Source: Naegleria gruberi
Taxonomy: Eukaryota
Reading direction: 5' to 3' (one strand)
Assembly: GCA_000004985.1 (NCBI GenBank)
Contig: GG738899.1
DNA: 64,000 nt
The position numbers were made by a program, and so were the translations under genes. This document shows, in pieces, positions 787 to 62,892 of this stretch. Position 1 is the first letter of the stretch. The number at the start of each line of letters is the position of its first letter. The notes beneath the pieces were generated by a model that searched no databases, was not told the DNA's origin, and was given only the letters and a program-made list of their open reading frames with translations.

Positions 787-960
787 TTTTTTGCTTTTTT
801 TTTTAAAAAGGTTAAAAATAGAGAGAATTTGTTTTCAATTGATTTTAAGAGATTTTACAATGACGTCAACCAAAGGAGCAGAATTTCAAGTTACCGAATA
901 GATTCCGAAATGGAAAGATTTGAAATTTTGATTAAATTTAAATAAATTTAATTAAAAAAA

Positions 961-2277
961 ATGGAAAGAAAATCTCTGCTCGATCTATCCAGTGATGATT
1001 TACTAGAAATTTGCAAGTTTCTCTCACCTTGTGATATCTTCCGATTATCCCAAACCAATCACTTCATGTATTTTAACCAATTTGAAATTTCACAATCATC
1101 TTGTCGAATGTTTTTCGATTTAATCTCGAAACAAGTCTCCGATCACTTGGAAAATTCGTCATCACAAAAAGTTTGGTGGTTGAGTGATGAAGAAAAATTG
1201 TGGATGGAGAGGAAAATTCAAAATAGAAAAGATTGGAAGAATTTGTTGAGAGTTTATTTGAGGTTGAGTTATATTGAGTTAATGAACGAGAAATATGGAG
1301 AATGTGAATTTTTGATTTATCAACCTTTTGGAAATATTAGAAATGAAACGAATGAGCAAGAAGTTACTTGTTTGGGAGATTTGAAATTGGATTTTACATT
1401 ATCTGAAATGGATGATCCAGTATTGGTTCATGGATACAGAGATTCAGATGGAAATATCAAAATTTTCAATTGGGAAAGACAGAGCTCGAAAGTGAAAACA
1501 GAGCTAAATTTATCTATTCCAACAAAATCCTTACAAAAGAGAGAGTCATTCGTTATAGGCACAGATACAAATTTATTTCAAAGATTGGTTGAATTATGGA
1601 CACCCTATGATGATAGGTTTCATAATGTTATACGAACACAGGAATTCACAATACCTAACCGTGTTTTCAAAATTACAATTAATAAGAGGTCACAGGTCGT
1701 ATACGAAACTGGAAGAGCTCGTCTTAACAGTTTACAAAATTGCCCTTCCAAAATCCTGATTCACACAAAACCACCACGCATTGAACGTATATTCTCACTT
1801 TCTACATTGGCTTGTCATATTCCATTTTATCATGACTTGTTTTCTTTCGTCCTTTTCTCTTGGTTTTTTTATGAACGTTATTCTAGAAGCTTTTTCAGAC
1901 ATTCACAAGAATTATTGTCACATCCATTCAGACATCCATGTTTAGAGGGCCATGAAATGTATCAGTATGCTTACTTTGCAGGGTTTGTTGTTTTCAATGT
2001 ATTGTGTGGGGGAAGTGTTGGATTTATTATGGCTCTGTTGCCAGGAGTTATTTCTTCTGGTTTAAGCATCTTTTTAGGAAGGTTTTTGGATGATTGGGAA
2101 TATCCTGAATCGAGAGAATTGAGATCCACGTGGAATTTACTTGCATTTTTAGAAGTTGCCAATATGACTTCGAGTGTCATTTCAACTTTCGTGCGGAGTG
2201 AAAACTTATTGTTGTGGGCAGACACATGGAAGAATTCAATTTTGGAATATTTCAACTCTAAGAAGAGAAAGGAATAG
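961..2277 (+). CDS. F-box domain protein (438 aa) with a hydrophobic C-terminal half.
   Basis: The ATG at 961 is followed by LLDLSSDDLLEICKFLSPCDIFRLSQTNHFMYFN, an F-box-like motif. It lies 174 bp from the SRP54 start on the opposite strand, so the two share a bidirectional promoter. The C-terminal region is hydrophobic; unmodelled introns there are possible. Confidence 0.6.
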   Translation: MERKSLLDLSSDDLLEICKFLSPCDIFRLSQTNHFMYFNQFEISQSSCRMFFDLISKQVSDHLENSSSQKVWWLSDEEKLWMERKIQNRKDWKNLLRVYLRLSYIELMNEKYGECEFLIYQPFGNIRNETNEQEVTCLGDLKLDFTLSEMDDPVLVHGYRDSDGNIKIFNWERQSSKVKTELNLSIPTKSLQKRESFVIGTDTNLFQRLVELWTPYDDRFHNVIRTQEFTIPNRVFKITINKRSQVVYETGRARLNSLQNCPSKILIHTKPPRIERIFSLSTLACHIPFYHDLFSFVLFSWFFYERYSRSFFRHSQELLSHPFRHPCLEGHEMYQYAYFAGFVVFNVLCGGSVGFIMALLPGVISSGLSIFLGRFLDDWEYPESRELRSTWNLLAFLEVANMTSSVISTFVRSENLLLWADTWKNSILEYFNSKKRKE

Positions 2278-2281
2278 TTAT

Positions 2282-3541
2282 TTATTCGATTTTGACAAAG
2301 TATCTGCACTTTCTATTCTTGGACTTTTTAAAGAGAGAATCCAATGAGTACTTTTTGCTTGACTTTTTGATTGGAATTGAAACTCGTTCGCTTCTTCCTC
2401 TTTTAGAAGATTTGGAGTTGTTTCTATTCTTCTTGCTGGATTTCTTTCTTCTTGAAACCTTTTCTTTTCTTTGATTCTTTGCCTTCTTGAAGTATTTAAT
2501 TCCATTACTGAATTGTTTCACAGCATCTTTGATTTTGATCCATGTTTTCTTATTCTTGACTGCATGCTTAAGCTTTGATTTGATGAGTTTGAATCCACTC
2601 TTGACTCCCTTCTTGATGGCAGCCAATAATTGTTTACGATTCTTAATTAATTTAGTGGCTTTTTTCAAAGATTGCTTCAACAATTTGAAATTCTTTGGAT
2701 AGAAAATCTTTGGTGCCAATCCCAATAATTTGAAACCAGCTCTAAAGCTCAACAATCCATTGACAACATTCAATGTCTTTCTAACGATTTGGAATGCCTT
2801 ATTCTTGACAATTGGAGCTACTGCCTTTGCTGCCTTATTCTCAATTGGAGCCAGTTTAGTCATTGTAAACTTGCTAATTGCAGAACCAACCTTATTGGCA
2901 GCTCTTGCAATCTTTTTCATTCCCAATTTGTTGAGAATCTTGGAAATAGGACCTGCTATGAAATTTGCAACATTGGACACTTCTGTACTGTATGTTCCTA
3001 ATCCATTCAAGAAATTCATGGTTTCGCCTGTAACCATCAAGCCAGCAATTGCAACTTTTTGAACCCACAAAGTTTTCACTTTTGAATGTTTTGATTTCTT
3101 CTTTAAATATTGAACATCCTTCAATGAAGCTTTCAACAAATCTGCAGCTGGATGTTTAGCTCTTCTGAGGAAATCTTTTACAATGGCCAAGAGTTGTTGT
3201 CTCAATAGTTTGGCTGCTGGTGTTCTTTTTCTAAGAAGAGAATCAGCAATCTAACAAAATGTCAAAATGTCAGCAAATCAAAAGATATGTCATCAACTAA
3301 CCTTTTTAATATTGGCAGCTAGAATCAAAAACTTCTCAGAAATGATCAATTCTCTTTTTTTAGAAACTACATGTGTAAATTTCTTTACAATTTTACGAGT
3401 TCTGTTATCGATGGTGATGGAAGTTGGTTGGGATTTTGTTTGGATAGCATGCACATGCAAAATACAAACTAGAACAAGTAGCAAGATTGCAGAATAACAA
3501 AATCTTTTCATTTTTTTTAGATGTGGTAATGAAATTTCCAT
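2282..3541 (-). CDS. Secreted Lys/Ala-rich cationic repeat protein of about 400 aa. Exons 3302-3541 and 2282-3250, intron about 3251-3301.
   Basis: The N-terminus MEISLPHLKKMKRFCYSAILLLVLVCILHVHA is a signal peptide. A 51-nt intron (GTTAGT…TTAG) joins in frame (…LAANIKK|IADSLLRKR…). The body is a long run of amphipathic K/A-rich helices (AAKAVAPIVKNKAFQIVRK…, KSGFKLIKSKLKHAVKNKK…, GIKYFKKAKN) with a strongly basic tail. Total CDS is 1209 nt, which is 403 codons. Confidence 0.55.
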
Positions 3542-3660
3542 GGTGGTCGACTCTTTAGAGTTTGAAGTTGACAAGTGGCATTCACTGACAGCAGAAGCTC
3601 AACTTCAGTGGTCTGTGATGAAAGCACAACGATCTTACTAATGTTACCTTTAATATGATT

Positions 3661-6600
3661 TTAGTTGAGTTTGGATTGTTTAATAAGGTCATTCTTAGAG
3701 TCGAGAATATCATGATAGGATGAATACTCTGAAGTAAAAACTAATCTAGAATAGCTATCTTGCAGATTCATCAATAATTCAGTCTTTAGATCTTTGATAC
3801 ATTCAGTGATTCTTTGGTTATGTGGAGATTTACCTTCCTTGCTGTTAGAAAGTTCAACTGAATTCGAATCTAAGTCCTTGAGAATTGATAGCAAATTCTT
3901 TCTCAAGTTAGATGGGATATTGACCTCATTCACACTTCCACTTTTAATGTAGGTTTCAAATAATGTGGTAAAGAAACTCTTTAGCTCTTTGATTCCTCCA
4001 TTCAAAGCACATTCGTTTTGTTTCAGATAGGTGTATAATTGAACATTTTCCAATGAAAATTCCTTCTTACAAAACCATTCCATCAATGAACAGCCTTCTT
4101 CACTATCCAAAAAGGTTACCAATTCAGAAAATTCTTCTTTTGACTCGTTTGATTTTCTTAATTTGGAAACTAACAACACTAATAACGAATATCCACCAAA
4201 TACAAAACAATAACTAGCCAAATATAAAATTTCAAATGCCATTGAAACAGAATCATTCACAATCATTCTCTTTTGAGATGAAATTCCAGATAATCCAATT
4301 ATTTGATTACAAACAAGGAAAATAAAACACACAACAAAGAAAATCATTTCCACTCTAAAGTAAAGTGGTGAATCAACTCTCGAATACCAATTGACCACTT
4401 GTTTGGCAGGTAAGAGGACGAAATTTGTTTTCTTCTTTGTGTCCATGTTTGTAATTTTTGAAATGATTTCGTCCTTTTTCTGGAAGAAAGAAATGGAATA
4501 ATCCAAAATAATTAATCCAACAATTAGTAAACAAATGGAAAGAATGATACAAGTAAATGAAATGGAAACCACATAGGTGTAATCTCGCCCTACAAGAACA
4601 TTGGTTCTCACTAAAATAACCCACAACGTCCAAAACATTAAGTTTCCAATAAATCCACTAATTAAACTGAGTAACATTATTCTAGTCGAGAGGAAACTCT
4701 TCACTACTTTGAGCACTTTTTCTCCTTCCTTTTTCTCCTTAGAATTGGAAAATATTGCCAATTTGTGATAGAAATATTTCAACAACTCAAATCTCGTCAC
4801 TTGATACAAATACGAAATGAAAGCAGTGATTGTAATAGAGTTTACAATAATTGTAATGATATTAGATAAGATATTAGCTGCCAAATCACCATATTCCCAT
4901 GAAACTGAACTTGACTGAGGTCCATTCACTTGAACCTGTCCAGAAAGCAAAACACTCTTCTGTGTAACCAACAACAATGCTGTCTGAATAATCATTGCTG
5001 ACATTCCAATAAAAGGTGTCACGAATCTACTCTTCACAGGTTGATAATTCCTAAAAACAATCAACAGAACCATCAACACACATGACACTATAAAGAAAAT
5101 ACTGCCATACACAATCTGGGTAATGTAAATTCCTTGCAATTCTTTCGGTTCTCCCTTAGTTGTGTTAAATTCCACAAATGCTGAGAATAAAGTTGTGTGA
5201 TTGCATTGACATTGAATATTGAGAGAGTTTGAAGAGAGGAATTCACATCCGTTGGATTCCCATGATTGGCCAGTTTCGTTCCAGTATTTACAGGCGATGG
5301 AGGAGTTTAGGATAGTGTTGTTATTGAGTGGGAGAGTGATGATGAAAGGTTTGGTTAAATCTTTGATTTCTAATAAGTTTCCTTCTTTGTAAATAGAGAA
5401 TTCTGTAAATGAAGAGAGGGAGTTTGTTAGCGAGAAATTATCTGGTTTGATGTTTTTCGAATATTTGATAAGGGACATACCAAATTGTTTCGAATAACCA
5501 TTATACGAACTCATAACATTATCCAGATCAATTCGTACATCTTTAAAATTGGATTTTTCTCCACCTTCGGTTTGCTCATTCTTAATAAAGTTTGAAGTGT
5601 AGATATCTACACTGCCAGAAGTAAAAATCCTTTTAGAAATGGGAGGATTAGTATTCGAAAGTAACTGTGGTGGCTCACTAAGAATTGCCAATTTTGAAAC
5701 ATGATTGTAAATTCTCGATACATTAGTATTACCCTGATCTAGAATACTTGTAGTTGCCATGAGAATACTGTTCAAATCACTGCTGGAAACAATCTTTTCT
5801 TTTACGAAACCAAACGAATCAAACTGATTCTTATAATTACTTGTTAGATTCAAAAAGTATGAATCAAGCTTTTGAGCAATAACAGAGCTAGCCTCTACCG
5901 ATTTGGAATTCAACAAAACCTTCTTCAACGTGTCAATTACCTGTGATGGATTTTGTTGTGGGATTTCTAATGACTTTACAATTTCCAATAAAACAGAATT
6001 ATCTGACAGAGAATCATATGGAACGACTGTTGAAAGTTTGGAATCTGATTTCAATCTTTCTAATAGAGAAGCCTTTGGGTCAGGAAATGGTAAAACTGAA
6101 AGGTCTCCTGCAAGAGCTTCAATATATTCGAAACCTTGCGAATCTTTAAGAAACAGCATCATGGTTATGTTATTTGTAAAATAGGGAAGATAAACAGAAT
6201 CTATCGAGGCTGTTTCTGTAACATATCGAGTAATTCTCACATTGCTCATGTCCTTGTATTGGAAACCTAAGGCATATTGTAAAGGAGACAGATTAGTCAA
6301 TAAAATAATGTCAAAACTAAACTTTACAAGAGTCTTGAGAGCATAAACTGTTGAGTTTCCACTAACAATTGTGAATTGATTTCTCAATAGTTGTGGCTTT
6401 GAATAAACTGGAATTGTTTCTCGAACAGTTGTCATTTGTAAACCAGACGAAAGTGTAACCTCAAGAGTCAAATCCGAAACTGTTCTCAAAGATTCAACAG
6501 AGAATGATAGTAATGGATTGAATTTGACTGAACTAATTCCATCATATTCTCCTTTTGTAATTCCACTTCTTGTTGATTCTAAAATGGATGTTGTCATTGT

Positions 6601-8166
6601 GATGGAATATGTTAGTGGAATTGAGCATTTTCCAATACAATTAAAAAAACTGGAACCGTTCTGAATATATTGAATTCCTTGAATGATACTATCCAAGTTA
6701 TGATTCTTGTCCTTAATGAAATAGGAAGGAAATCCAAATTTGGTAATTATTGGTAAACTATGAATGGTTACGTTAAAAGTGATGGAATTTGAAATTATCT
6801 TTTTAGAGATGGTGCTATTTGCTTCCACTGCAAACGTGTAACTTGCATCTGTTATTGTAAAATTACTGAAATACGACCAATTGAACTGTGGTTGAGTAAT
6901 TTGTGGATTACAATTCAAACATTTCCAAACAAAGGAAATTGCATTCAATTCTAAAGCACTCAGTGCTCTATTACTTAAATCATAAGTATCCAATTTCAAT
7001 TCTAAATTATTTCCCCTACCAATATGATAATCATTCAAAGGTAAAGAGATTCGAATATATTGTCCATCACATATGTCTCCAAAATATCCCTCCGTACAAG
7101 CACATCCTCCTGTTAACGCTGTTGTGTTAAAAGAACAGTATCCATGTGATGAACAAGCTCTGACATCACTACTGGCATAAAAAACTTCATTTCCATTGAA
7201 AACTCCTTTACAAAGTAAATTTTGACATTTGGGTCCATTAACTTTTACATTGTCATTGACATCATAACAGAGACAAGTGCCATCTGGTAAACATTTGCCT
7301 TTTCCACTACAAACATTTGGATCATCTTGTCTTATTCCATGACAACTTGACACATTACAAATAGGTCCATAAAATCCACTCTTACATGTGCAATAATTGG
7401 TTGAGGTACAATTTCCATTTCCTGCACAAACATTCACATCATTCCACAGAATTCCATTACAACTGTGAGTCGCATTCTCACACTCACTTCCATTATAACC
7501 ATTATAACACTCACACCTATTATACGAAACACATTTTCCATTAGAATTACATGCACCATCATTAATAGTCTTTGAAAAACAAACTGGATATTCACAAAAA
7601 AGTCCAACATACATAGCTGGACCAGTTGGAGCATATTTCGTCACTGGATTCCAACATACATTTCCATTCGAATCATAAATAATCATCTTTCTATCAGCTC
7701 CAATGATCAATCGAAATGGTCCACTACCTCCCATAGGACATGCACTACTCAATTCATGGGCAAAACTTCCACCTTGAAAGAGTTTCAATTGACCATTTCC
7801 ATTATCCAATACCATAGTAAATCCTGAACCTGCAACAGTAACACTCGAATAATCATCATCCCCTGTATCTGCATTAACCAATTTGAGTTGACCATTCAAT
7901 GTGAGTGTCATGTACTCATTTTGTTGTGGATTATAGAGACGAGCACCTTCTTGGATAGTTCCATTTATGGATGAGTCAATATAATTACCAGAGGATAGAT
8001 CTAAACAAATGCAATTTCCACTACTGCTAGAACAGATACCATTACCAGAGCATGTGCGAGGATCATTATAGGCGTTGCAATTTAGAGCGGCCAAAGATTG
8101 GTCAACCAAAGGAAGACACTGGACAAGGAATAGACAGAGAAACAAGAGACAAAAGAAAGATCTCAT
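3661..8166 (-). CDS. Adhesion-GPCR-like 7TM receptor with a C-terminal RGS domain, 1501 aa. Domain order is signal peptide, bulb-type lectin, EGF-like ×4-5, long Ser/Asn-rich stalk, GAIN/GPS motif, 7TM, RGS. No intron seen.
   Basis: Signal peptide: MRSFFCLLFLCLFLVQC. B-lectin triplet motifs: LTLNGQLKLVNADTGD, MVLDNGNGQLKLF, MIIYDSNGNVCW. Cys-rich EGF modules: CxCxxGYxGxxC, for example CSGKGKCLPDGTCLCYD. GPS motif: CKYWNETGQSWESNGCEFLSSNSLNIQCQCNHTTLFSAF. Seven hydrophobic helices follow. RGS-like box: FSLENVQLYTYLKQ…EVNIPSNLRKNL. Confidence 0.8.
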   Translation of the reverse strand: MRSFFCLLFLCLFLVQCLPLVDQSLAALNCNAYNDPRTCSGNGICSSSSGNCICLDLSSGNYIDSSINGTIQEGARLYNPQQNEYMTLTLNGQLKLVNADTGDDDYSSVTVAGSGFTMVLDNGNGQLKLFQGGSFAHELSSACPMGGSGPFRLIIGADRKMIIYDSNGNVCWNPVTKYAPTGPAMYVGLFCEYPVCFSKTINDGACNSNGKCVSYNRCECYNGYNGSECENATHSCNGILWNDVNVCAGNGNCTSTNYCTCKSGFYGPICNVSSCHGIRQDDPNVCSGKGKCLPDGTCLCYDVNDNVKVNGPKCQNLLCKGVFNGNEVFYASSDVRACSSHGYCSFNTTALTGGCACTEGYFGDICDGQYIRISLPLNDYHIGRGNNLELKLDTYDLSNRALSALELNAISFVWKCLNCNPQITQPQFNWSYFSNFTITDASYTFAVEANSTISKKIISNSITFNVTIHSLPIITKFGFPSYFIKDKNHNLDSIIQGIQYIQNGSSFFNCIGKCSIPLTYSITMTTSILESTRSGITKGEYDGISSVKFNPLLSFSVESLRTVSDLTLEVTLSSGLQMTTVRETIPVYSKPQLLRNQFTIVSGNSTVYALKTLVKFSFDIILLTNLSPLQYALGFQYKDMSNVRITRYVTETASIDSVYLPYFTNNITMMLFLKDSQGFEYIEALAGDLSVLPFPDPKASLLERLKSDSKLSTVVPYDSLSDNSVLLEIVKSLEIPQQNPSQVIDTLKKVLLNSKSVEASSVIAQKLDSYFLNLTSNYKNQFDSFGFVKEKIVSSSDLNSILMATTSILDQGNTNVSRIYNHVSKLAILSEPPQLLSNTNPPISKRIFTSGSVDIYTSNFIKNEQTEGGEKSNFKDVRIDLDNVMSSYNGYSKQFGMSLIKYSKNIKPDNFSLTNSLSSFTEFSIYKEGNLLEIKDLTKPFIITLPLNNNTILNSSIACKYWNETGQSWESNGCEFLSSNSLNIQCQCNHTTLFSAFVEFNTTKGEPKELQGIYITQIVYGSIFFIVSCVLMVLLIVFRNYQPVKSRFVTPFIGMSAMIIQTALLLVTQKSVLLSGQVQVNGPQSSSVSWEYGDLAANILSNIITIIVNSITITAFISYLYQVTRFELLKYFYHKLAIFSNSKEKKEGEKVLKVVKSFLSTRIMLLSLISGFIGNLMFWTLWVILVRTNVLVGRDYTYVVSISFTCIILSICLLIVGLIILDYSISFFQKKDEIISKITNMDTKKKTNFVLLPAKQVVNWYSRVDSPLYFRVEMIFFVVCFIFLVCNQIIGLSGISSQKRMIVNDSVSMAFEILYLASYCFVFGGYSLLVLLVSKLRKSNESKEEFSELVTFLDSEEGCSLMEWFCKKEFSLENVQLYTYLKQNECALNGGIKELKSFFTTLFETYIKSGSVNEVNIPSNLRKNLLSILKDLDSNSVELSNSKEGKSPHNQRITECIKDLKTELLMNLQDSYSRLVFTSEYSSYHDILDSKNDLIKQSKLN

Positions 8167-8444: not shown

Positions 8445-9954
8445 ATGTTAAAAAGAGGATTACGAATTGTACCCAAATCACAAAGGCCATCATGCTCTCT
8501 TTCCAAAACACCTAAATATCATCCTCATCATCACATTCATAATAATAATTTTTCATCTCCATCATCATCATCGGAGGGAATTAATAGAAAATATTCATCA
8601 TCATTAATTCATCATCATGATAATAATGAAAAGATACCAATTTCATTGTATTTTCATTGGCCATTCTGTTTATCCATTTGTTCCTATTGTGATTTTAATA
8701 GATATAAACGAAATTCTTCATCCATTGAATCGTTTGAGGAAAATTCACTCGGCAAACAAATGATGGACACTTATTTGAAGGTTTTGACACAAATTAAAGG
8801 AAAATTGGAGAATGATTTGGTGATTGGTGGTAATTTAGAGCAATATGAATTGGTTTCTGTGTTTTTTGGAGGTGGAACTCCATCAACAATGCATCCTTTG
8901 GCTATGGAAAAGATAATTTCACACGGATTGGAAATGTTTGGAAAGAGTAGAGAGGATGGAGTTGAAATTTCAATGGAGGCAAATCCAACTTCAATCGAGT
9001 ATGGAAAATTAAAGGATTTTCATAGAGCTGGAATTAACAGAGTGAGCATTGGAGTGCAAAGTTTTGATTCTGAATGTTTGAAGAGCTTGGGAAGAGAACA
9101 TTCAATTGAGGATGCTTTGAATGCTATAGATATTGCAAGGAATACATTTGGAGAGGATAGTATTTCAATAGATTTAATGTTTGGATTAGCTCAACATAAG
9201 AATAATCCGTCAATTTGGAAGAATTCTTTGGCAAAGGCACTTTCTCTGAATTTATCACACTTGTCATTGTATCAGTTGACAATTGAGAAGGGTACTAAAT
9301 TCCACAGATTATTTAATGTTGAAAAGGATTTACCAAATGAAGAAGAATCGAGTCATTTATATGAATTTACCATTGAAGAATGTAAAAAACATGGATTGGA
9401 AATGTATGAGGTTTCTAATTTTGCCAAACCTGGCAAAGAATGTAAACACAATATCATGTATTGGAAGTCAATTCATGATTTTATCGTAAGTTTTATTAAA
9501 TAACAAGGTATTCTCATTCAATACGAATTAGGGTGTTGGACCAGGAGCTCACGGAAGACTCACCAATCACAATACTAGGGAAAGATTCAGCACTATTCAA
9601 GTAATGAGACCAGAGGATTGGATTGAACAAGTAGATAATCAATTGAATCATATTCACAAACCATCTTTATTATTTGGAGATATTAAGGAAGAAAAGTTAA
9701 CAGAGGAACAACAAATTGAGGAATTATTCATGATGGGGCTCAGAATGCCAAAAGAAGGAGTGAGTGAAAGCTCTCTACGTGCTATCAATCCTGAACTTTC
9801 TTTTGAAAAACTATTGAATGCTAACATGATTAAACAATTGGAAAATCATGGATATATTAAATTAATCAAAGAGGAAAATGATAAAAGAATTGTAGCAACA
9901 ATGAGTGGAATTAGCGTACTGGATATTCTAATTGCCAATTTACTATCCAAGTAA
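8445..9954 (+). CDS. Radical-SAM HemN-like protein (RSAD1 / oxygen-independent coproporphyrinogen-III oxidase-like). Exons 8445-9485 and 9532-9954, intron about 9486-9531.
   Basis: The CxxxCxxC radical-SAM cluster motif is present as LYFHWPFCLSICSYCDFNRY. HemN-family motifs GGGTPS and GVGPGAHGR are also present, and the C-terminal HemN-C-like region follows. A 46-nt intron (GTAAGT…AATTAG) joins …SIHDFI|GVGPGAHGRL in frame. The N-terminal extension is His/Ser-rich and may be a targeting sequence. Confidence 0.85.
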
Positions 9955-25799: not shown

Positions 25800-26229
25800 T
25801 TTGTTTTGGTTGTATTATCGGCAGTGCCGAATCGTCACAGTGATTACATGATTTGATAGGAAGCACTTTGCCAAAATAGTCAAGCTAAACTTCTTATTGT
25901 GAAAGCACGTTAAATGGATTAATGACGTTTCATTTGCATTTACAGCTGTCTGTAATGATTCTGTGTTTAAAGAATAAATGAAGAATGCATAAAGAAAGAT
26001 ACATGGAGATTAAAGGATTTGAATTTGATGAAAGTGCTTACTGAGATAATGAGAAGCAGAAGTGTATAATCAGAATTTACAGTAATGTTGAATGCAGAGA
26101 CGGTCAACTAGAGTTATGTTCTATCAGTTTTCATCTTAATGTCACCATTCAATGAATGCAAAATTTGTTGATCTCAACATAGTTAAGGAAATGTGGATAA
26201 TAAATTAAAATTTTTGTATTGGGAATATT

Positions 26230-27819
26230 TTACAGTGATTTGAAATTTTGTTGATGTGTTGGCAAAGATAAGAACTCATTTGGATAATTTACAGAGCCAT
26301 TGGGTGGGATAGAGGCGTAGTATGATTGATTCAAAAATGGTGGAGGTACCAGAGAAGTATTATTATTTTGGGTGGAAGTTTCAATTTTTGTCTTCTTCTT
26401 TGGTTGTTTTTTTGGCTTTGGTGGAGGTTGTGGTTGAGTTGGAGGCTCTGCTATAGAACCTTCTTTTTCTCGTTCCTCTAATTCCTGTTTTTCTTTCTTT
26501 GACAAAAATCTGCCTCCAGGACCTCTAGCTCTTTTCTTTGCCCATTCGTGGCGAGAATTGTACTTGTAGGATTTGTCCTTATATTGCCCAGCATTTTTCA
26601 TTTGTTGTTCCAATTTAGCTCTGGCTACTCTTCTTTTCAAAATTCTTTGGTACTGTTTTGGATTTACATAAATTGTTCCTTCAACATTTTGTTGAGAGTT
26701 ATCTGCTTCAGCATTTGCTTGATTATTGGAATAGTCTTGAACTAGTGACTCTGGTTGCTCTTCTTCAGCACTTGTGGGTATTCCAGGTTGTTGTGAATAT
26801 TGATAGTAATTCCAATAGTGATGATTTGGATAAGAATACCAATGCATTTCAGGTTGGGAGTACAAAAAGTTAGGATCATGACTCATACCATTAGCAGCAA
26901 GATAAAAAGGTTGCATTATTCCATGTCCAGTCATTGCAGAAGAATGCAACATATTAGGATAGGAGTAAGCAGAAGTAGTAGAAGTAGGCAGACCATCAAG
27001 CTCATTCTCATATGCATGTTGTTGAAGAGTTGGTTGCTGTTGTTGGGTTGTGACTGGTCGTGCAGATGAGCTTCCCTTTTGGGTTGGATTGGATTGATTG
27101 GAAGAATTTGAGCTAACACGTTTCCTTTTCGGAGAGGTTTTTACAGTGGTTGTTTGAATCAAAGTACTACTCGGATCATTGATAGGAGTGGGAGCTGTGG
27201 CTGTAGTAGGAAGCTTGTTCAAAGGCAAAGATTTGACATTGTTTGTTTGTGAAATTATTGGTGATGGAATGGTTACGTTAGTAGTTGTAGTACTAATGCT
27301 ACTGAGTGCAGTGGCAGACACAACAGTTGAAGGGAGAGCAACAACAGCAGAGGACGAAGCCACATTGGTTGAAGGGAGAGCAAAAGGTGGAGGAAGGAAA
27401 GAACTTTCCATTGTCGATGATTGTTGTTGGAGTAAAAATTGAGTACCTCCTCTCATCATGGCTGCTGATGAAATTGCAGCTGACGATGATCCTCTACTAT
27501 TAATTGTAGAGGTACTACTGCTACTACTCGATGGCTTGAGAGGATCATGAAGAATTGATTGTTGTTGTTGCTGTTTGGGTGAGGAGTGAGTAGGGAGGAC
27601 AGAGAGAATTGATAGAGCAACCTGTTCATCACCAACCGATGATCTGTGATGAAGAGGATTTTCTTGATGATGATGGTGTTGATCCATAATTACAAACTCT
27701 CTTGGAGTTTGTATATTTGCATCATCATCACTACTGCTACTAATGAAGGAAGAATCGTCTTGATCGTCCTCTTCTTGATTACCAATCGGATCAACAACAC
27801 AAGTGTACTCTTCAGCCAT
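26230..27819 (-). CDS. CCAAT-binding factor subunit NF-YA / HAP2 homologue (529 aa) with long low-complexity tracts.
   Basis: The conserved NF-YA core is EGTIYVNPKQYQRILKRRVARAKLEQQ…YNSRHEWAKKRARGPGGRFL (subunit-interaction plus DNA-binding halves). It is flanked by poly-Q, poly-S and His runs and a Lys/Pro-rich C-terminus. Confidence 0.8.
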   Translation of the reverse strand: MAEEYTCVVDPIGNQEEDDQDDSSFISSSSDDDANIQTPREFVIMDQHHHHQENPLHHRSSVGDEQVALSILSVLPTHSSPKQQQQQSILHDPLKPSSSSSSTSTINSRGSSSAAISSAAMMRGGTQFLLQQQSSTMESSFLPPPFALPSTNVASSSAVVALPSTVVSATALSSISTTTTNVTIPSPIISQTNNVKSLPLNKLPTTATAPTPINDPSSTLIQTTTVKTSPKRKRVSSNSSNQSNPTQKGSSSARPVTTQQQQPTLQQHAYENELDGLPTSTTSAYSYPNMLHSSAMTGHGIMQPFYLAANGMSHDPNFLYSQPEMHWYSYPNHHYWNYYQYSQQPGIPTSAEEEQPESLVQDYSNNQANAEADNSQQNVEGTIYVNPKQYQRILKRRVARAKLEQQMKNAGQYKDKSYKYNSRHEWAKKRARGPGGRFLSKKEKQELEEREKEGSIAEPPTQPQPPPKPKKQPKKKTKIETSTQNNNTSLVPPPFLNQSYYASIPPNGSVNYPNEFLSLPTHQQNFKSL

Positions 27820-28118
27820 TAATTATATTGTGATGTAAAGTTGAGTTTGATTATGAGATTATCGGAAAGTAGTGGGCCGGACACAATGGATGACACAACA
27901 ATTCAATACTACTACTGTGTGTTGTAAAACCACTTATAATTATTGGAGAAATGTTTTGGTTGGTGGTTGAAGGAGTTCGATGATTGGATAAATTTTTTTA
28001 GGGATGAATAAAATAATTGGTTGTCCTAAATTTAGCTCATTTTACAATTTTTTAAATAGTAAGAACTATTTGAATGGTATGGATAACGAGATGAAAAGAG
28101 TATTTACTTTATTTACAC

Positions 28119-33414: not shown

Positions 33415-36400
33415 TTACATGGTTGAAGTACTAGTAGCAGGCTTCAATCCTTCACCAACATATCTAATGGCATGCTTATTTTGTGAAATGGCAATACGAA
33501 CAGTCTCCTTATTGATAAATCTTTCAGCAAGTCTTCTCAATACAAGTCCATTTGTAGAGACAGCAACCTTTACCATATCTTCACTGATACGGTTGGCATG
33601 TCTGATGAGGAATGGATTCTTCTTGATAATAGGGGTCATGAATTCAATGTCAGATCTGAGGAATCTTGAAGCATAACGAATGGAATTCACACATTGATTA
33701 GTGGCAACGGCAACGAGTTCCTTATCAAAGGTATATTCATTTGGAAGATAGTCCAACAATCTACCATTCTTCTTGAGAGCTAATTCGCACAATTCTCGGT
33801 TAATCTTGTTAGATTTCAAGAATTGAATGCAATTTCCATATCTCTTGACAGACTCTCTAACAAATTCATCATCATTTCTCAAAGATTCGTCCAAAAATTC
33901 GAATGATTTACCATTACTTGTCTTGAGTGAAATCTTGGCAATTTCCAAATCCTTCTTCAATTCTGATGGAGCAAACTTGACAGCCAATCCACAATTTTTT
34001 ACAGCATCCAAAACAATTTGCTTGGTGTTTTGCAAATCAGCAGAGGCAAACTTTAAGGCACGACCATTTACTGAAACTGCCTTTTGAACAATTTCGTAAT
34101 CACTTCTGAATGGAATTGCCAAATATTCCAAGGCAAGACCATTAATGGCAATTGCTAATAGTGCAAATTCTCTGTCTTGTTTGAGGGTTTCACTGGCATG
34201 TTTGAGGGATTTTCTATTCTTCTTGAAACAATCGAGGACAAACTTGGAATCACTCTTCAAATCATCAGAGGCGAGTTTGAGGATAGTAGCTCTGTGATTG
34301 ATTGCTTCCTTGATGTGAGAGGTGTCGAAGGATTGGTCAACCTTTTTTGGATTCTTACGAGCAAGTGAGAGTTTGACATCTGAATCTTGTTGTAATTCCT
34401 TAGAAAGATAAACGAATGATTTTCCACTTTGATTGAGAGCTACCAAAGCAACTTGTTTGTTATTTCTCATATCTTCAGATGCAAATCTAATGGCAGATCC
34501 ATTTTGCTTGACAGCTGCCAAAACAACACTCAAATTATTCTTCAAATCATTGGAAGCATAATCCAACAACAAACCATCCTTCTTGACAACTTTCAAGGTA
34601 ACTTGTTCATTGTTTTGCATTTCCTTAGAAATGAATTTGTAAGCGTCCTTACTGCTCTCAATAGCTCTCTCAACAATTTCCAAATCTTCCTTAAGATGTT
34701 CATTGAGATATTTGATAGAGTCTCCATTATTGGCAACTGCCTTCAATGCAAATTCTCTTTCATTTCTCAAATCGAGAGGTAAATATTGAAGAATTTCAAC
34801 ACCCTTATGATTCAAAGCAGCGTTAGCAATTTCCTTATCAATAATAGTACTACAGGCATATCTGATAGCAGTAGAGTCACATTCAACAGCATATTTTGTG
34901 AATTCCTTATCTTCCCACAAATCAATTGAGACATATTTCAAACTGTCATAGCTTTCCTTGACAGCAACTCTGGCATATTCCTTGTAATCCTTGGAATTTT
35001 CGTCCAAATATTTGAGTGAAGCTCCTTCATAGTACAAGGAAGCAAGAACAACATCTCTGTCACTTAACAAACTCTCGTGAACGTATCTGATGGCGCTTCT
35101 GTCAGTTTTCATAGCTGCCAATGCAATTTCCTTATCCTTGAGAATTTCCTCATCAAATACATATTGTAAACTGGAGCCATATTCTTGAATAGCTGTCATG
35201 ACAATTTCTCTATCTTTCTTAATATTTTCTGGAAGATATTCCAAAAGACATCCTTCAATTCTTACTAATTTCAGTAAAGCTTGTTTGTCATGTCTCAATG
35301 GATGATCAGGAAGTTTGGCCAAAACCAAAGGTTGCTTTACAAGAGCTTCACTAATAAATTCAGGATCATTTCTGAATTTTTCTGGAACATACTTGATATT
35401 ATCTCTATTTTCAATCACAGCTCTGAGGCAGAGTTCTCTATCATTCATAATATCATCGTGACTGATAAAGTATTCTAAACCACATGAAGGCAAGGCAATC
35501 TTGACAAGTTTTGGATCATTTCTCAATTCGAAAGGAATATAATTAATGGAATACTTGCTGGACTGAATGGCAGTCATGTAAACATCTCTTTGTAAGGCAA
35601 GATGAAGTGGTGCATACTTGATTAAATCTCCACTCTTTCTAATGGCAGTCATGAGAATTTCCTTATCATTCAATAATTCAACTGGAAGATATTCGTAGAC
35701 GTTTGGTTCCTTTTCAATAATTCTCATAACAAATTCTCTATCTCTTTGGAGTTCAGCACTGGCATATCTGAATGCTGTATAATAATTCTCCACAGCTGTT
35801 GTGACAATATATCGATCATTGGTGAATTTGGAACCAGCAAAGAGAAGTGCACCTCCACTGCATCTCACAGCTTCCAATACAATTTCATAATCTTCTCTCA
35901 ATTCAAGAGCAGCAAATGCAAGAGCATCACCATTTTCTTGAACTGCAATTTTGACAATTTCTCTGTCAGCTTTGAGTTCTTCACTGGCATATTCTAAACA
36001 TCTTCCATCAAGATATACTGCAAACTTTACAAAATCTCTATTAGAAAGAAATTCTGGATCAACAATGGCATCAATAGATCTTTCCTTGACAGCTGTCATT
36101 ACAACTTGAAGATTGCTTGCAAATTCCTTGCAGGCATGTTCAAAAACGTAACTGCTGTCTCTAACACAAATCTTGACAAGCTCTGCATCTGAAAGATGAG
36201 TTTCATCATCAATATATCTCAAAATAGATCCATCCATTTTCAATGCCTTCTTAACAATTTCTCTATCAGATTGCAACTCTGATGGGAAGTAACGAATGTA
36301 ACTGCACTTTAAGGCATTCATGTAAATCTCAGCGTCATTCTTGAAATGTTCACACTCCTGTAAGACACTTCCATTGTTCTTGATGAGTCTCTTGATGAAA

Positions 36401-38745
36401 TCTCTGTCACTCAATAATTCCTCTGAGAGAATCTTTGGTTCAACGGCAATTCCATGATCGAGTAATTTGGTCATGAATTCTCTGTCTTCTCCTAATTTTG
36501 TATCAATATCGTTGAATCCATACTGATTGGTAAGGAGTGAGAGTAGAGCAATTTCTCTATCTCCCTTAAACTTTGGCAAATCTTCAATGTTTCCACCATT
36601 AAATTGACAAACTGTTTTGGCAAATTCTCTGTCGCTTCTGAGTCTTTCAGAAGCAAATTTGAGAGAATTATAATTGCCCTTACCTGACCAGAGAACAATC
36701 TTTTCATCATCTTTTTGTTGCTTGGTAACATATTCAAGAACTCTTCCATCATTTTCCAATGCAACCATTACAAGAGAAATGTCTTTTTTCAATTCATCAC
36801 TGGCATGAGCAAATGCTCTACCATCCATTCTAATTGCAGTTGAGACAATTTCTCTATCATTCTTGAGTTCTTTAGAGGTATACTCCAAAGCATCTCCTGA
36901 TTTCATTACTGCTCTCAACACGACCCCTCTGTCATTCTTGAGGTCACTCGAAGCATACTCCAATGCTGAGCCATTTTCAGAGACTGCCATCAGGACAATT
37001 TCCTTATCGTTTTTGAGCTCAGCAGAGGCAAATTCAAGTTCTCTACCGTTATTCTTGACCAATTCCATAACAATCTCTCTGTCATTCTTCATTTCATCAT
37101 TCAAATATTCCAGGATAGAGCCCCATCTTGAGAAGCTAGATTTGAGTTTGATTATTTGCAAACATAAATCTCTATCATTCTTGATATTATCTGAAACATA
37201 TTGTAAAGCATTAGTGTTCGAAGAGAGGGCAAGCTTTACAATTTCAAAATCATCTTTCAATTCATCAGAAGCATAAGCAAGAGCTGAACCATCTTGTCTG
37301 ACAGCTTGTTTGACAATCTCTCTGTCAGATTTAACTTCTTCTGGGGCAAATTCCAAAGCAGAACCACGAACCTTGATAGCAGCCTTAACAATTTCAATAT
37401 TTTCTTTGATTTCATCAGAGGCATACTCTAAAACTGAGCCATTCTTTCTGAGTGCCTTCTTGACAATTTCAATATTATTCTTGATATCATCTGAGAGATA
37501 GCTGAGAGCTCTTGGATCTTCTTCGAGGGCAATTAATGCAATTTCCTCATCATTCTTCAAATTATCTGAAGCATATTCAACAATACGACCATTCTTTCTA
37601 ACAGCCATTTTGACAATTTCTCTATCATCTTTCAAGGAATCATCAACGTATTCCAATACATCTGCATTAATCTTGATAGCTTGTTTCACAAACTCTCTAT
37701 CTTGTTTCAATTCATCAGAAACATATCCACATGCTCTGGCATTACTAGAAATGGCAGCAAGGGCAATTTCCTGATCAGATTTAAACTCATCCACAACATA
37801 TTCCATCACATATCCATCTGATTTGACAGCTTTCAACACCAAATCTCTATCACTTTGCAATTCTTCTGGTATTTCCCTTAAATCACTTCCATTTACCAGT
37901 AAAACAGCTTCAACCACTTCACGATCCTGTTTCAATTCATCAGATAAATCGCTCACTAATGAACCGAAAAAGAATGAACATCCTTCTTCCTTTACACCTT
38001 TCAAAACCTTCAAACAAAGATCCTTTTCAGTTCTGAACTTTGGATGAGCATGTGAAAAAACAGTTCCATTATATGACTTGGCAATTGCACTAATCACAAT
38101 ATCAATGTCAGCTTTCAATTCTTCTGGACAAAATTCAAGTGCAGAGCCACTCTTATCCAAAGCTATGAGTGCCAATTCTTTATCTTCTCTCAATTCTTCT
38201 GATGCAAATTGGAAAGCATCTCCATCATTCTGAACTGCAATTTTCACAATTTCATAATCAGCTTTCAATTCATCAGATAAATATTCCAAATTAGAACCAG
38301 CATCTTCAAGAACAATTAGTGCAATTTCTCTGTCGTTTTTCAATTCGTCTGATGCATATTTGATGGATGATTTATCTTCTTTAATGGCCAATAGAACTAA
38401 TTCTTTATCATTTCGTAAAGAATCGGATGCATTTTCTAATAAATTGCCTCGTTTAGGGAGAGCTTTCAAAAACACTAGTTTACAATCATTGTCTGGGAAT
38501 GGATTTTCTGTTAAAAAATCGTCAACGGCAAAGTAATCATCATCAATTCGTCCAAAAGCTTCGAATAATTGTTCCAAATGTTCGAAAGCTTGTTTCTGAC
38601 GATTAACAACTTGATTACGTAAATAGATTCGATGATTTAACAGAATGGAATATGCAGAATTATTGTTGCCATCACATGAATGATCATAGCTTGATCCTCC
38701 ATTAGCGTTCAATGTGACAATTCTAGCATCTTCAAAGTTTGACAT
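33415..38745 (-). CDS. Giant intronless repeat protein (1776 aa). About 45 tandem ~36-38-aa repeats of DUF4116 type.
   Basis: Repeat consensus: …(D/N)(R/K)E(I/V)(V/A)L.AV..(N/D)G.AL.YAS.(E/D)LK.D… repeated across almost the whole ORF (DREIALIVLEDAGSNLEYLSDELKADYEIVKIAVQNDGDAFQFASEELREDKELALIALDKSGSALEFCPEELK…). DNA-level repeats have diverged. Flanked by the two tRNA genes. Confidence 0.8.
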   Translation of the reverse strand: MSNFEDARIVTLNANGGSSYDHSCDGNNNSAYSILLNHRIYLRNQVVNRQKQAFEHLEQLFEAFGRIDDDYFAVDDFLTENPFPDNDCKLVFLKALPKRGNLLENASDSLRNDKELVLLAIKEDKSSIKYASDELKNDREIALIVLEDAGSNLEYLSDELKADYEIVKIAVQNDGDAFQFASEELREDKELALIALDKSGSALEFCPEELKADIDIVISAIAKSYNGTVFSHAHPKFRTEKDLCLKVLKGVKEEGCSFFFGSLVSDLSDELKQDREVVEAVLLVNGSDLREIPEELQSDRDLVLKAVKSDGYVMEYVVDEFKSDQEIALAAISSNARACGYVSDELKQDREFVKQAIKINADVLEYVDDSLKDDREIVKMAVRKNGRIVEYASDNLKNDEEIALIALEEDPRALSYLSDDIKNNIEIVKKALRKNGSVLEYASDEIKENIEIVKAAIKVRGSALEFAPEEVKSDREIVKQAVRQDGSALAYASDELKDDFEIVKLALSSNTNALQYVSDNIKNDRDLCLQIIKLKSSFSRWGSILEYLNDEMKNDREIVMELVKNNGRELEFASAELKNDKEIVLMAVSENGSALEYASSDLKNDRGVVLRAVMKSGDALEYTSKELKNDREIVSTAIRMDGRAFAHASDELKKDISLVMVALENDGRVLEYVTKQQKDDEKIVLWSGKGNYNSLKFASERLRSDREFAKTVCQFNGGNIEDLPKFKGDREIALLSLLTNQYGFNDIDTKLGEDREFMTKLLDHGIAVEPKILSEELLSDRDFIKRLIKNNGSVLQECEHFKNDAEIYMNALKCSYIRYFPSELQSDREIVKKALKMDGSILRYIDDETHLSDAELVKICVRDSSYVFEHACKEFASNLQVVMTAVKERSIDAIVDPEFLSNRDFVKFAVYLDGRCLEYASEELKADREIVKIAVQENGDALAFAALELREDYEIVLEAVRCSGGALLFAGSKFTNDRYIVTTAVENYYTAFRYASAELQRDREFVMRIIEKEPNVYEYLPVELLNDKEILMTAIRKSGDLIKYAPLHLALQRDVYMTAIQSSKYSINYIPFELRNDPKLVKIALPSCGLEYFISHDDIMNDRELCLRAVIENRDNIKYVPEKFRNDPEFISEALVKQPLVLAKLPDHPLRHDKQALLKLVRIEGCLLEYLPENIKKDREIVMTAIQEYGSSLQYVFDEEILKDKEIALAAMKTDRSAIRYVHESLLSDRDVVLASLYYEGASLKYLDENSKDYKEYARVAVKESYDSLKYVSIDLWEDKEFTKYAVECDSTAIRYACSTIIDKEIANAALNHKGVEILQYLPLDLRNEREFALKAVANNGDSIKYLNEHLKEDLEIVERAIESSKDAYKFISKEMQNNEQVTLKVVKKDGLLLDYASNDLKNNLSVVLAAVKQNGSAIRFASEDMRNNKQVALVALNQSGKSFVYLSKELQQDSDVKLSLARKNPKKVDQSFDTSHIKEAINHRATILKLASDDLKSDSKFVLDCFKKNRKSLKHASETLKQDREFALLAIAINGLALEYLAIPFRSDYEIVQKAVSVNGRALKFASADLQNTKQIVLDAVKNCGLAVKFAPSELKKDLEIAKISLKTSNGKSFEFLDESLRNDDEFVRESVKRYGNCIQFLKSNKINRELCELALKKNGRLLDYLPNEYTFDKELVAVATNQCVNSIRYASRFLRSDIEFMTPIIKKNPFLIRHANRISEDMVKVAVSTNGLVLRRLAERFINKETVRIAISQNKHAIRYVGEGLKPATSTSTM

Positions 38746-44731: not shown

Positions 44732-47700
44732 TTACATTAAATTGGATTGTTTCAATAATTCTTCTCTGCTGTTACTGGAAGTGGAATATTCTTCAAACTC
44801 TTGTGTATAGAAAAATCTAGAGAAAGTATCTGATAGATTGATTAATATTTGATCTGTAAGGGATTTGATATTATCAACAACCATATCAGATAAATTTGCA
44901 GGAAGGGAGTTCTTTTTTGTTTTGGAAACTGATTGCTTCTCGTCTACTAATTCGAGATTATTTGCATTTTTCAACTTTGCCACCATTGAGGCAAAAGATT
45001 TTCTGCAATCAGATGGAATATTCACTTCCCTAATAGAACCAGATTTCACATAATCATCATAAATATTGTTAATAAACTCTATTATTTCTGCCAGTCCCTT
45101 TTCGATAATATTGGAGTTTTTGGTTAAATGTAAATAGAGTTGAAGATTTTCAAGTGAAAACTCTTTTCTGCAGAAACTATCAAATATCTTTAGGAATATT
45201 GGATTTTCTAGGTATTGATTGATTTCTACCTTCTCTTGTTCATTCTTTTCACCATTCCACACTTTCATTCTTTGGGCTAACAATACAAGAAGGGAATAAC
45301 CTCCATACACTAGCATGTATGTAACAATATGTAATACCTCGAAAATGATTGAAACCGAGTCATAGGTCACTACAGTTCTTACTATAGCCAATGGTGCTAA
45401 TTTTGTTTCGGTATAACCTGTTAGTAACAGCCTATAGTTAAGACTAGCCATTCCCAAAGCTTGTACAATGACAAGGAAAATAAATGAAATAACAAACAAA
45501 ATCATTTCAGCTCTGAAGAACAGTGGAGAATCAGCCTCTACAAACCAAGAAAAGAGGAAATTGAAAACCTTACCCAAAATATTTTGAGCTTTCATCTTTT
45601 GAGATTCTTTAGATCTGTTGGTTGTTTCATTCTTGTTCAAATTTCTCTGATACCATGTCATTATCAAATCTACTGAAAATATACAACAAACAGCAAAACC
45701 AATAAATAGAATTGCAACAGTATAAGAAATGGAAACTATTTGGGTGTATTCAGGGCCAGTAATCACGTTTGTTCTAACTAAAATAACCCACAAAGTCCAA
45801 TATGCTAAATTGATAAATGCAAAAGTAATCAACATAATGCTGTAGAATTTTGCAGATATCAGATGCTTGATAAAGTGAAGAAATCTACTTGCAGTCACCT
45901 TATCGTTCATTAAGGATAATTCATTATAGAAATATTTTAAAAATTCAAATCTCATAACCTGATACAAGTATGTCATGATTGCACACAGGGTTATGGTGTT
46001 TACAATAATTGTAATAATATTTGCCAATATAGAGGAAGCTAGATAACTATTGGCATCGTTTGATTGGGTAGAGGAAATCAAAACACTTCGTTGAACAATG
46101 AGTAGAAGAGAGCTTTGGGTAATCAAAGCTGCCATTCCCAAGAAAGGGGTTGTGAATCTGCTCTTTACAGGTTGTTTGTTAGCATTCAAAGCTAATCCTA
46201 TCAAGACTGCAACAGCACAAATCAAGTAAACTGAACCTAGGGCAATCTGAGTACCATGAACACCAATAAATTGATCGACATATGGTTCAAATGTAATACC
46301 CACAGGAACTTGCTCTATAAAAGCAGAAAATAAAGTGGTATGAGTACAAGAGCAAACAATTTCACCAGTTGCCGAGTTTAAGGATTTCAAAGTGCAACCG
46401 TCAGTATCCCATTTGGACATGGTTTCATTCCAATATTTACAAATGATTCTACTATTATTGCTAGAGCTAATGGGGGTGTTTGAATTGAATGAAATTGAAA
46501 AAGGTTTCACAAGGCTCTTCAAATTCATGCTGTTGCCGTTCCTATGCATTGTGAAATCCTTAGCATTGGCAGCGAAGGTGGCATTAGTCTCTGGATACAC
46601 TATTCCATTAAAGGATACTACAGATAAACCAACTTCAGTGGAGAAGGAGGAGTATTGTGCAAGAATGGAATCAGCTTCAAATAAAATTGAGTCAAACCGA
46701 TTTGTTACCGTTGAAGTTGAAGCACTGTCTTTCGAAAAACTTGAGTATGTAATATTAATATTGGCTGAAGTTATAATTGTTGAAGGCAAGAGTGTATCAC
46801 TTGAAGTAAGGAGGGTTGGTATTGAGGAAATTACTAAAAGTGAAGACAATTTGGTCGCTAAACGACTATCCAATCCCTTTTGAACTAAATTGGATGATGT
46901 TGAAAGAATCGTTTTCGTATCTTCATCTGAGATCTTGGAAGACACAAATCCCTGTTGGCTCTTTTGAGTTTTGTAAGAATTTACAGAATTTCCAAGGTAA
47001 GAATCCAGGTTTTGTATAATTAAATTGGACACAGAGGTAGTGAGATTTTTTTCAGACATAGAATACAGTGATCCAAGTCCAACTGTTGGATTTTCCGCTG
47101 AAATAGTGAAATTCTGCATAGCCATTAACAGTAATTGGTCATATTCATCCGATGATCCAGTGAATGATGAGTCATATGGAACCACTTTAGCAATTCTTGA
47201 ATCGGTCTTCATTAGAGACATTGCCTCACTTGGGGTGCTGTAGAATCTAAGCATTGTCACAACTGATTGAACTAAAACTGACTGTACATTAGATAAGTTA
47301 TCCTTTGCAAAGACCACCAAGTCTGTTGGCTTGTTTTGTTCCATATTTTTTGTGAAAGGCAAATAAGTCAGTAATTGTTGGCCCATAGGTACAAATTCAG
47401 TTAATCGTAGAGTCTGGTTGTTGTAAACAATACCTATTGCAAAAGAAAGCGGGGATTGATCTGCAGAGAAAATTTTCCAGTCGCTTTCGTTTTCCTGAAT
47501 ACTAAACAAGGTATACAGACCAACTCCTCTGTTAGGAGATATATTTAGATTTGAATTTGATGACTTTCTAATTATTGAGCTGGCTACAGGAATGGTGTGA
47601 TTAATCACCATAGTGTTTTGGATAGCACCAGTAATTGTAAAGGAAAGGGTAGCAAAATTAGTAGAACCTTCAAGTTTTACCAATCCTTTGACATTAACAA

Positions 47701-62738: not shown

Positions 62739-62856
62739 GGCTACGGCCATATCACGATGAATGCACCTCATCCCGTCCGATTTGAGAAGGTAAGCATCGT
62801 CGAGCCACATCAGTACTGAGGTTGGAGACAACTTGGGAACCTGTGGTGCTGTAGTC
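62739..62856 (+). rRNA. 5S rRNA gene, copy 3 (118 nt), followed by a T5 terminator.
   Basis: Identical to copy 2 except one substitution (GAGAAGgTAAGC). Upstream element TTTTGATATTAACAAT|GG. Confidence 0.9.
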
Positions 62857-62892
62857 TTTTTAATTCAAAATATCAAAGTAAAATGAAATTTT

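Follow-up and report, generated by a model that had tools for sequence, protein, structure and literature searches.

The window analysed here, a stretch of 64 000 nucleotides from contig GG738899.1 of Naegleria gruberi (assembly GCA_000004985.1), contains a minus-strand gene that runs from position 3541 down to position 2282, is divided into two exons by a single 51-nt GT..AG intron, and encodes 402 amino acids plus a stop codon (403 codons) once spliced from the ATG at 3541 (table 1). Its product, a very lysine-rich protein with a predicted signal peptide, is a member of an unnamed family restricted to Heterolobosea so far, and we tentatively read it as a secreted polycation acting as an intact protein. 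An initial annotation of this DNA had described it instead as a polyprotein of antimicrobial peptides (AMPs).

The gene is real and the two-exon model is correct. Indeed, the unspliced open reading frame (ORF, 3574..3293) stops inside the intron, and a metagenome contig (L001, from ENA ERZ929261; 3723 bp) that is 98.7% identical to positions 852..4575 of the window retains an intact spliced ORF, with six synonymous and five non-synonymous differences from the window gene and with GTAAGT at the 5′ splice site where the window has GTTAGT. The gene model is settled by a hidden Markov model (HMM) of ten full-length Naegleria homologues, built without the window protein, which aligns to residues 37–371 (287 bits, E = 1.6e-89) and crosses the splice junction as one uninterrupted domain. 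The coordinates and codon count of the initial annotation are thus correct, and a spurious ORF was ruled out, as the second exon stays open for 969 nt in DNA of 33% guanine + cytosine (GC) and its conservation extends to a second strain and to other genera. Between the window gene and its metagenome copy, the ratio of non-synonymous to synonymous change (pN/pS) is 0.22, a value based on only 11 substitutions that falls between those of the two neighbouring genes (0.35 and 0.05, also from small counts). Translation may nevertheless start at the second in-frame ATG (3511), since this would give an n-region as short as that of the rest of the family and a protein of 392 amino acids.

On the metagenome contig, the prokaryote-style gene call began after the intron, which cut the homologue of the window protein to 302 amino acids, and illustrates how metagenome catalogues mis-call such eukaryotic genes.

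The family was recovered by an exhaustive phmmer search of 1.84 billion cluster representatives with residues 81–334 as the query, which returned 21 proteins at E ≤ 1e-3 (15 at E ≤ 1e-10); besides the near-identical metagenome copy, the 20 non-identical relatives span E-values from 2.5e-51 to 9.5e-07. Other searches saw little of it: a word-indexed homologue search with the full protein, which was probably swamped by low-complexity words, matched only the 98%-identical metagenome copy, a profile search with a trimmed core recovered just three members, and tblastn within the window detected no paralogue (next best E = 0.19, inside a G-protein-coupled receptor (GPCR) gene at 45272..45424). The named members come from N. 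gruberi (NAEGRDRAFT_82053 (XP_002669685.1), _70206, _66957, _48300 and _63440, i.e. at least five paralogues), Naegleria lovaniensis (C9374_008815, _003269 and _013835), Naegleria fowleri (FDP41_010275) and Acrasis kona (AKO1_006519 and AKO1_006399), and they are accompanied by metagenome sequences and one marine-transcriptome sequence. According to cluster look-ups, all the named members belong to Heterolobosea and all are annotated as hypothetical or predicted. Pfam gave nothing above threshold for the window protein (sub-threshold: Ac76, RSB_motif, WH2 and CFAP126) and no match shared by the 22 family sequences. The earlier statement that no family name applies therefore stands as far as Pfam goes, but the protein does have a family, and what is new is that an apparent orphan becomes a member of a definable family with diagnostic motifs, which has neither a name nor a Pfam model.

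All members follow the same plan, namely a signal-peptide-like N-terminus, one helical region of about 300 amino acids carrying the motifs, and a hypervariable basic tail. Downstream of the signal, a short stretch of alternating hydrophobic residues (TSITID in the window protein) precedes a first set of helix motifs (..IP.., then HPxxD..L...L), a variable linker, and a second set ((I/L)GTYS..SK...F..G.V...L.K.G and AP.E.K.AKK.AP.VKSK.FQ..R..LNVV); basic amphipathic helices of lower conservation and the low-complexity tail come last. The window protein carries HPAAD, LGTYS and APIVKNKAFQIVRKTLNVV as its versions of these motifs. In all members analysed, the core has a net positive charge (+10 to +26 per 155 residues), about 14 positions are conserved as basic across the family, and in the window protein the segment that follows it bears +37 over 109 residues. 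The tail, too, is basic in every member analysed whose C-terminus is complete (+12 to +65), while its composition differs: the window protein has K/S, others R/S/G/N, G/H/S, P/R/A or S/Y/R/P. Several homologue tails are built from repeats, of APRxAPR in P0015, of SSYRAPS in P0016, and of GHGSS together with a His-rich stretch in NAEGRDRAFT_70206; those of P0015, P0016 and P0023 are all basic and mutually unalignable.

The window protein is 28–45% identical to the named family members (35–43% to the annotated Naegleria homologues) and, at 20% Lys, is the most lysine-rich member with a complete N-terminus. Ahead of its core it has a charge of +24, where most relatives lie between −9 and +5 and NAEGRDRAFT_63440 reaches +16, which makes the window protein an extreme, lysine-enriched copy; likewise, its variable linker reads KKKSKHSKVK where most aligned relatives are acidic or Gln-rich. 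Its tail ends in ..KCRYFVKIE and is devoid of the terminal (K/R)(K/R)GG(K/R)-type ending found in several relatives.

The C-termini of P0002, P0003, P0005, P0008/P0023, P0011 and P0017 are (K/R)(K/R)GG(K/R)(K/R/S)-like (..SGRR, ..GGGRS, ..RRGGRR, ..KRRGGK, ..KKKGGG and ..NRGGRR). Gly-plus-basic C-termini recall processing or amidation signals.

Table 1. Features of the window protein gene and of its surroundings (positions in the window; residues of the 402-residue protein).
Feature	Position	Strand	Description	Basis
Exon 1	3302..3541	-	codons 1–80: start, signal-peptide-like segment, beginning of conserved family region	translation, HMM alignment
Intron	3251..3301	-	51 nt, GTTAGT...TTGTTAG	unspliced stop, metagenome GTAAGT, homology across junction
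Exon 2	2282..3250	-	323 codons: 81–402 and TAA stop at 2284..2282	translation
Predicted signal peptide	3446..3541	-	residues 1–32, MEISLPHLKKMKRFCYSAILLLVLVCILHVHA; cleavage predicted after VHA	(-3,-1) rule by eye
Alternative in-frame ATG	3509..3511	-	MKRFCYS..., A-run before codon	comparison with family N-termini
Conserved family region	2489..3433	-	residues 37–334, split by intron; single non-repetitive all-helical unit	phmmer, alignments, hmmsearch
Residues 81–120	3131..3250	-	helices including HPxxD motif (HPAAD); AlphaFold2 pLDDT (predicted local distance difference test) 65–80	
Residues 139–185	2936..3076	-	nearly uncharged, Gly/Thr/Ser/Asn-rich; (I/L)GTYS motif at 3001..2987	charge/hydropathy scan, column conservation
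Residues 170–230	2801..2983	-	most confidently modelled helices, pLDDT 76–90; most of APIVKNKAFQ inside	
APIVKNKAFQ, full motif	2818..2789	-	runs past end of residues 170–230	
Residues 260–334	2489..2713	-	Lys-rich amphipathic helices, sequence weakly conserved; includes KSGFKLIKSKLKHAVKNKK, quoted in the initial annotation	
C-terminal basic low-complexity tail	2285..2488	-	residues 335–402, K/S/R/N-rich; predicted largely non-helical, low model confidence	
438-aa ORF	961..2277	+	N-terminus F-box-like by eye, C-terminal half hydrophobic; no Pfam match	
Adhesion-GPCR-like protein fused to RGS	3661..8166	-	1501 aa	domain composition
Adhesion-GPCR-like protein fused to RGS	44732..49564	-	1610 aa	domain composition
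HemW-like radical-SAM protein	8445..9503	+		sequence search
DUF4116 protein	33415..38745	-	1776 aa, 34 repeats	Pfam, 1257 bits

The N-terminus of the window protein reads MEISLPHLKKMKR-FCYSAILLLVLVCIL-HVHA, followed by IQ, and combines a basic n-region, a hydrophobic core of 11–15 residues, and V at −3 and A at −1 of the predicted cleavage site; its maximum 12-residue Kyte–Doolittle hydropathy (3.3) resembles that of the other members with a complete N-terminus. The signal peptide proposed initially is thereby borne out as a rule-based prediction, shared by the window protein and 13 homologues whose N-terminus is complete, and extending to the distant Acrasis and marine members. Several members without such a signal appear to be 5′-truncated gene calls, and the near-identical copy of the window protein (P0001, 22% K) is demonstrably so. 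The predicted mature chain has 370 amino acids, a mass of 41.8 kDa and a pI of 11.2. Over the 402 residues (K 20.1, L 10.9, A 8.5, S 8.2 and I 8.0%), 103 K + R face 16 D + E, giving a net charge of about +87, and the Lys content of 20% compares with 2.7–10.7% in the 22 other ORFs of the window. The strongly basic tail noted initially was likewise recovered.

The amphipathicity of the protein exceeds what its composition would produce. Indeed, the mean hydrophobic moment of 18-residue segments at 100 degrees reaches 0.355, while 500 shuffled sequences gave 0.238 ± 0.022 and none a value as high (z about 5.4), the angular spectrum is maximal at 100 degrees, and the highest moment of any 18-residue segment is 0.73. 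Segments that are both cationic and amphipathic make up 14% of all 18-residue segments, versus at most 3.6% in the 22 other ORFs. AMP-like moments occur at residues 191–208, 266–283, 287–304 and 320–337; altogether, eight 18-mers have moments of 0.45–0.62 on the Fauchère–Pliska scale, charges of +2 to +7 and HeliQuest-type discriminants D of 1.4–2.9, all above 1.34. Across residues 260–334, Fourier analysis of hydrophobicity gives a peak at period 3.5 (power 12.4 versus a shuffle 95th percentile of 9.6). The likeness to cecropins and magainins claimed initially is thus real, in charge and moment, for these eight 18-mers, but the three segments actually quoted for it are weaker, with moments of 0.43, 0.36 and 0.30 where other parts of the protein reach 0.6–0.73 and where magainin 2, cecropin A, melittin and LL-37 give 0.51–0.89 by the same measure. 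Nor does the protein consist of ‘almost nothing but’ such segments, as residues 139–185 are nearly uncharged and yet among the best conserved of the family.

Both AlphaFold2 runs gave an all-helical protein up to about residue 350 followed by a mostly non-helical tail, with the conserved helices modelled as a bundle at moderate confidence. Searches of the PDB returned nothing significant, the best match being mitoribosomal bL20m (E = 0.57, marginal) with the single sequence, and a designed coiled coil (E = 0.008) and ApoA-IV (E = 0.3) with a profile. Apolipoproteins (ApoA-I, A-IV and E, and apolipophorin III) are comparable in being secreted, all-helical and amphipathic, and the modelled bundle could open on a lipid surface; however, the helices of the window protein are overwhelmingly cationic instead of zwitterionic class A, and 11/22-mer repeats are missing. 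An apolipoprotein-like 11-mer period, suggested by proline spacings of 23, 34, 11 and 34, was rejected, as Fourier analysis found no coherent period other than about 3.5–3.75 residues and no 11/22-mer periodicity. An actin-binding WH2 motif was rejected as well: the candidate, NRKQLLAAIKKGVKSGFKLIK (residues 284–315, 2597..2692 on the minus strand), scored 14.2 bits against a cut-off of 23.1 in one of the 22 family sequences, and the likeness is probably due to chance, since it is not conserved in relatives.

Of the explanations considered, the one we favour, while holding it to be somewhat short of an even chance, is that of an intact polycation, secreted or held in the phagosome lumen, which would bind anionic surfaces and most plausibly bacterial envelopes or membranes. 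We favour it because predicted targeting to the endoplasmic reticulum is conserved across the family, because the positive charge of core and tail is conserved while the sequence of the tail varies, because the amphipathic helices have narrow hydrophobic faces, and because bacterivorous amoebae possess multiple, fast-evolving paralogues. In support of this last point, the HemW-like neighbour of the gene is 61–62% identical to its N. fowleri and N. lovaniensis counterparts, so that the window protein (35–43%) evolves faster than a housekeeping neighbour; in our judgement, such divergence and the presence of paralogues fit secreted effector, defence or surface proteins. According to this scenario, the protein would enter the secretory pathway and lose its signal peptide, and the resulting polycation of about 42 kDa would act as such rather than as a peptide precursor. 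Its conserved helices would fold as a soluble helical bundle, and its Lys-rich amphipathic helices and disordered tail would bind polyanionic surfaces; in a bacterivorous amoeba, these would most likely be bacterial envelopes or membranes, inside phagosomes or extracellularly, and the prey might be coated, agglutinated or permeabilized.

Several points weigh against this scenario. The signal peptides were called by eye with the (−3,−1) rule of thumb, and the AlphaFold2 model as a whole has low confidence (mean pLDDT 54, predicted template-modelling score 0.41). The best Foldseek matches to it were BAR-like long helices, at E = 0.03 or worse and with TM-scores of at most 0.34, and the fold matches, as far as this model goes, are generic. 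The mean hydrophobicity of the amphipathic segments is low, which leaves narrow hydrophobic faces and suits electrostatic binding to surfaces better than insertion into membranes; moreover, Lys-rich helical proteins in general score as AMP-like, and cationic amphipathicity alone is hence no proof of antibacterial action. The tails of homologues rich in S/G/H/P/Y repeats would also fit structural proteins of a wall or matrix. Finally, six locus tags of the family are not mentioned in the searchable literature, where queries on AMPs, encystment, the secretome and lysine-rich secreted proteins of Naegleria found nothing relevant either.

The serious rival, which we regard as unlikely without dismissing it, is that the protein has a structural or adhesive part in the cyst wall, the matrix or the surface coat, where its helical domain would self-assemble or bind wall polysaccharide, whereas the basic, Ser-rich tail may bind acidic glycans or the substrate and may itself be glycosylated or phosphorylated. 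Family-wide predicted signal peptides are expected under this explanation too; Naegleria and Acrasis, the genera of the named members, both form cysts; and the tandem low-complexity arrays of homologue tails (GHGSS, SSYRAPS and APRxAPR) are reminiscent of wall or adhesive proteins; KKSSKK-type K/S motifs in the tail of the window protein also speak for it. None of our results contradicts it directly. However, the Pfam searches revealed no carbohydrate-binding or Cys-rich module, and the tail of the window copy itself lacks tandem repeats.

An intact secreted polycation could also belong to something broader, although we consider this doubtful: a so far unrecognized class of protist proteins for prey killing or defence, found in Heterolobosea only, in which a helical carrier is joined to a diversifying tail (K/S-, R/S/G-, G/H- or P/R-rich according to the paralogue) and acts either intact or by releasing that tail. 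Such a class would be unrelated to the saposin-like naegleriapores and would be an analogue of the cathelicidins, which likewise combine a signal peptide, a conserved domain and a rapidly diversifying cationic C-terminus; the conserved domain is here all-helical and cationic instead of having the cystatin-like cathelin fold, and there is no homology between the two.

By comparison, the processed precursor proposed in the initial annotation, from which proteases would free one or several bactericidal cationic peptides (or, as in cathelicidins, the tail), now appears improbable. The eight AMP-like 18-mers speak for it, as do the 29 adjacent basic pairs of the whole protein and the coupling of a conserved domain to a hypervariable cationic tail, and the Pro/Arg-rich tail of P0015 and the Gly/His-rich tail of P0023 resemble low-complexity AMP classes. 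A precursor of several AMPs would nevertheless be expected to consist of repeated modules, flanked by conserved cleavage sites and usually accompanied by acidic spacers. No repeated modules were detected in the window protein, whether by blastp against itself (no off-diagonal match), by hhalign among four sub-alignments of the family (probability at most 2.1%) or by TRF on the gene (two trivial two-copy arrays and no tandem repeats in the tail). The dibasic sites, which the initial annotation had put forward as a check, are at chance level in the core (16 pairs versus 16.6 expected from composition), and the only dibasic column pair conserved family-wide is K-A in the window protein. The window protein contains no acidic spacers or propieces, its lowest 18-residue net charge being no less than −1. 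The chain aligns as one unit, and the supposed peptides, whose quoted examples fall below the classical AMPs in moment, are its most conserved parts and are modelled as a packed bundle. Accordingly, although the window protein shares with the multi-copy precursors of cecropins and magainin/PGLa a predicted signal peptide and amphipathic segments that are rich in Lys and AMP-like in charge and moment, it has neither tandem copies, acidic spacers and enriched or conserved dibasic sites nor any homology to them.

Six conserved cysteines are the hallmark of SAPLIP domains. Membership in this group was rejected, as the window protein contains three Cys, of which two lie in the predicted signal peptide, and gave no Pfam saposin match at E ≤ 10. 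A precedent for processing does exist in the genus, since the naegleriapores are antimicrobial peptides cut from saposin-like multi-domain precursors (PMC11542183). The likeness to these prosaposin-like precursors lies in the shared genus and secretory route, whereas the predicted mature window protein possesses a single Cys, and most of its homologues none.

Very unlikely, in our view, is a role in the lumenal packaging of polyanions, in which the protein would sit in a secretory or lysosome-related compartment and, as a counter-ion, balance the charge of polyphosphate, nucleic acids or acidic glycans. The high net charge, the R/S/G-rich, RGG-like tails of homologues, which resemble nucleic-acid-binding or protamine-like sequences, and the conservation of tail charge without that of tail sequence would all suit it; but this reasoning draws purely on composition and leaves the conserved motifs of the helical domain unexplained.

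A non-secreted protein, either basic and nuclear, nucleolar or ribosome-associated, or inserted in a membrane by an uncleaved signal anchor, seems most improbable: KKKSKHSK and RRKKSSKK do look like nuclear localization signals, phmmer gave the marginal match to bL20m, and the hydrophobic stretch reaches up to 20 residues if two His are counted, but the Pfam and PDB searches found no linker-histone or ribosomal-protein domain, 14 members open with a short basic n-region and a hydrophobic segment and have a small residue at −1, and even if this segment were not cleaved, most of the protein would lie in the lumen, because the N-terminal flank of the segment is the more basic (positive-inside rule). 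The histone H1-like linker protein that the initial annotation had named as its own refutation was rejected on the same grounds, Pfam detecting no winged-helix linker-histone domain in the window protein or in the 22 family sequences; the two are alike in being very Lys-rich with a basic tail, but the family has a conserved predicted signal peptide and the tail of the window protein is K/S/N/R-rich rather than K/A/P-rich. A mitoribosomal protein was discarded as well, the bL20m match being marginal and unaccompanied by any ribosomal-protein domain.

If the protein does act as an intact secreted polycation, amoebae of the Naegleria type, among them the pathogen N. fowleri, possess lineage-specific secreted polycationic proteins distinct from the saposin-like naegleriapores, which would provide new candidates for the handling of bacteria by amoebae or for the building of the surface or cyst wall. 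Were the protein merely structural, the value of the result would be modest and mainly annotational. In any case, this example shows that an AMP polyprotein can hardly be recognized by cationic amphipathicity alone.

Little space separates the gene from its neighbours. The convergent 438-aa ORF, retained in the metagenome contig with a pN/pS of 0.35, stops at 2277, i.e. 4 nt from the stop of the window gene, so that the 3′ untranslated regions of the two must overlap. On the other side, 119 nt separate the ATG from the end of the upstream 1501-aa gene at 3661. Both this receptor-like protein and its 1610-aa counterpart combine an extracellular region with EGF/teneurin-like or NHL repeats, a GPS motif, what look like several hydrophobic spans, and an RGS domain at the C-terminus.

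After its Naegleria counterparts, the named proteins most similar to the HemW-like protein are alphaproteobacterial HemW proteins (42–48% identity), as would fit a mitochondrial-type origin; among the matches listed there was no entry from N. gruberi. DUF4116, repeated 34 times in a single protein of the window, is heavily expanded in Naegleria. With regard to base composition, GC content falls to 24.5% in 62001..64000, against about 33% elsewhere in the window, and GC skew reaches −0.25 at 36–38 kb, over the DUF4116 gene, and +0.27 at 26001..28000, over an NF-YA-like gene.

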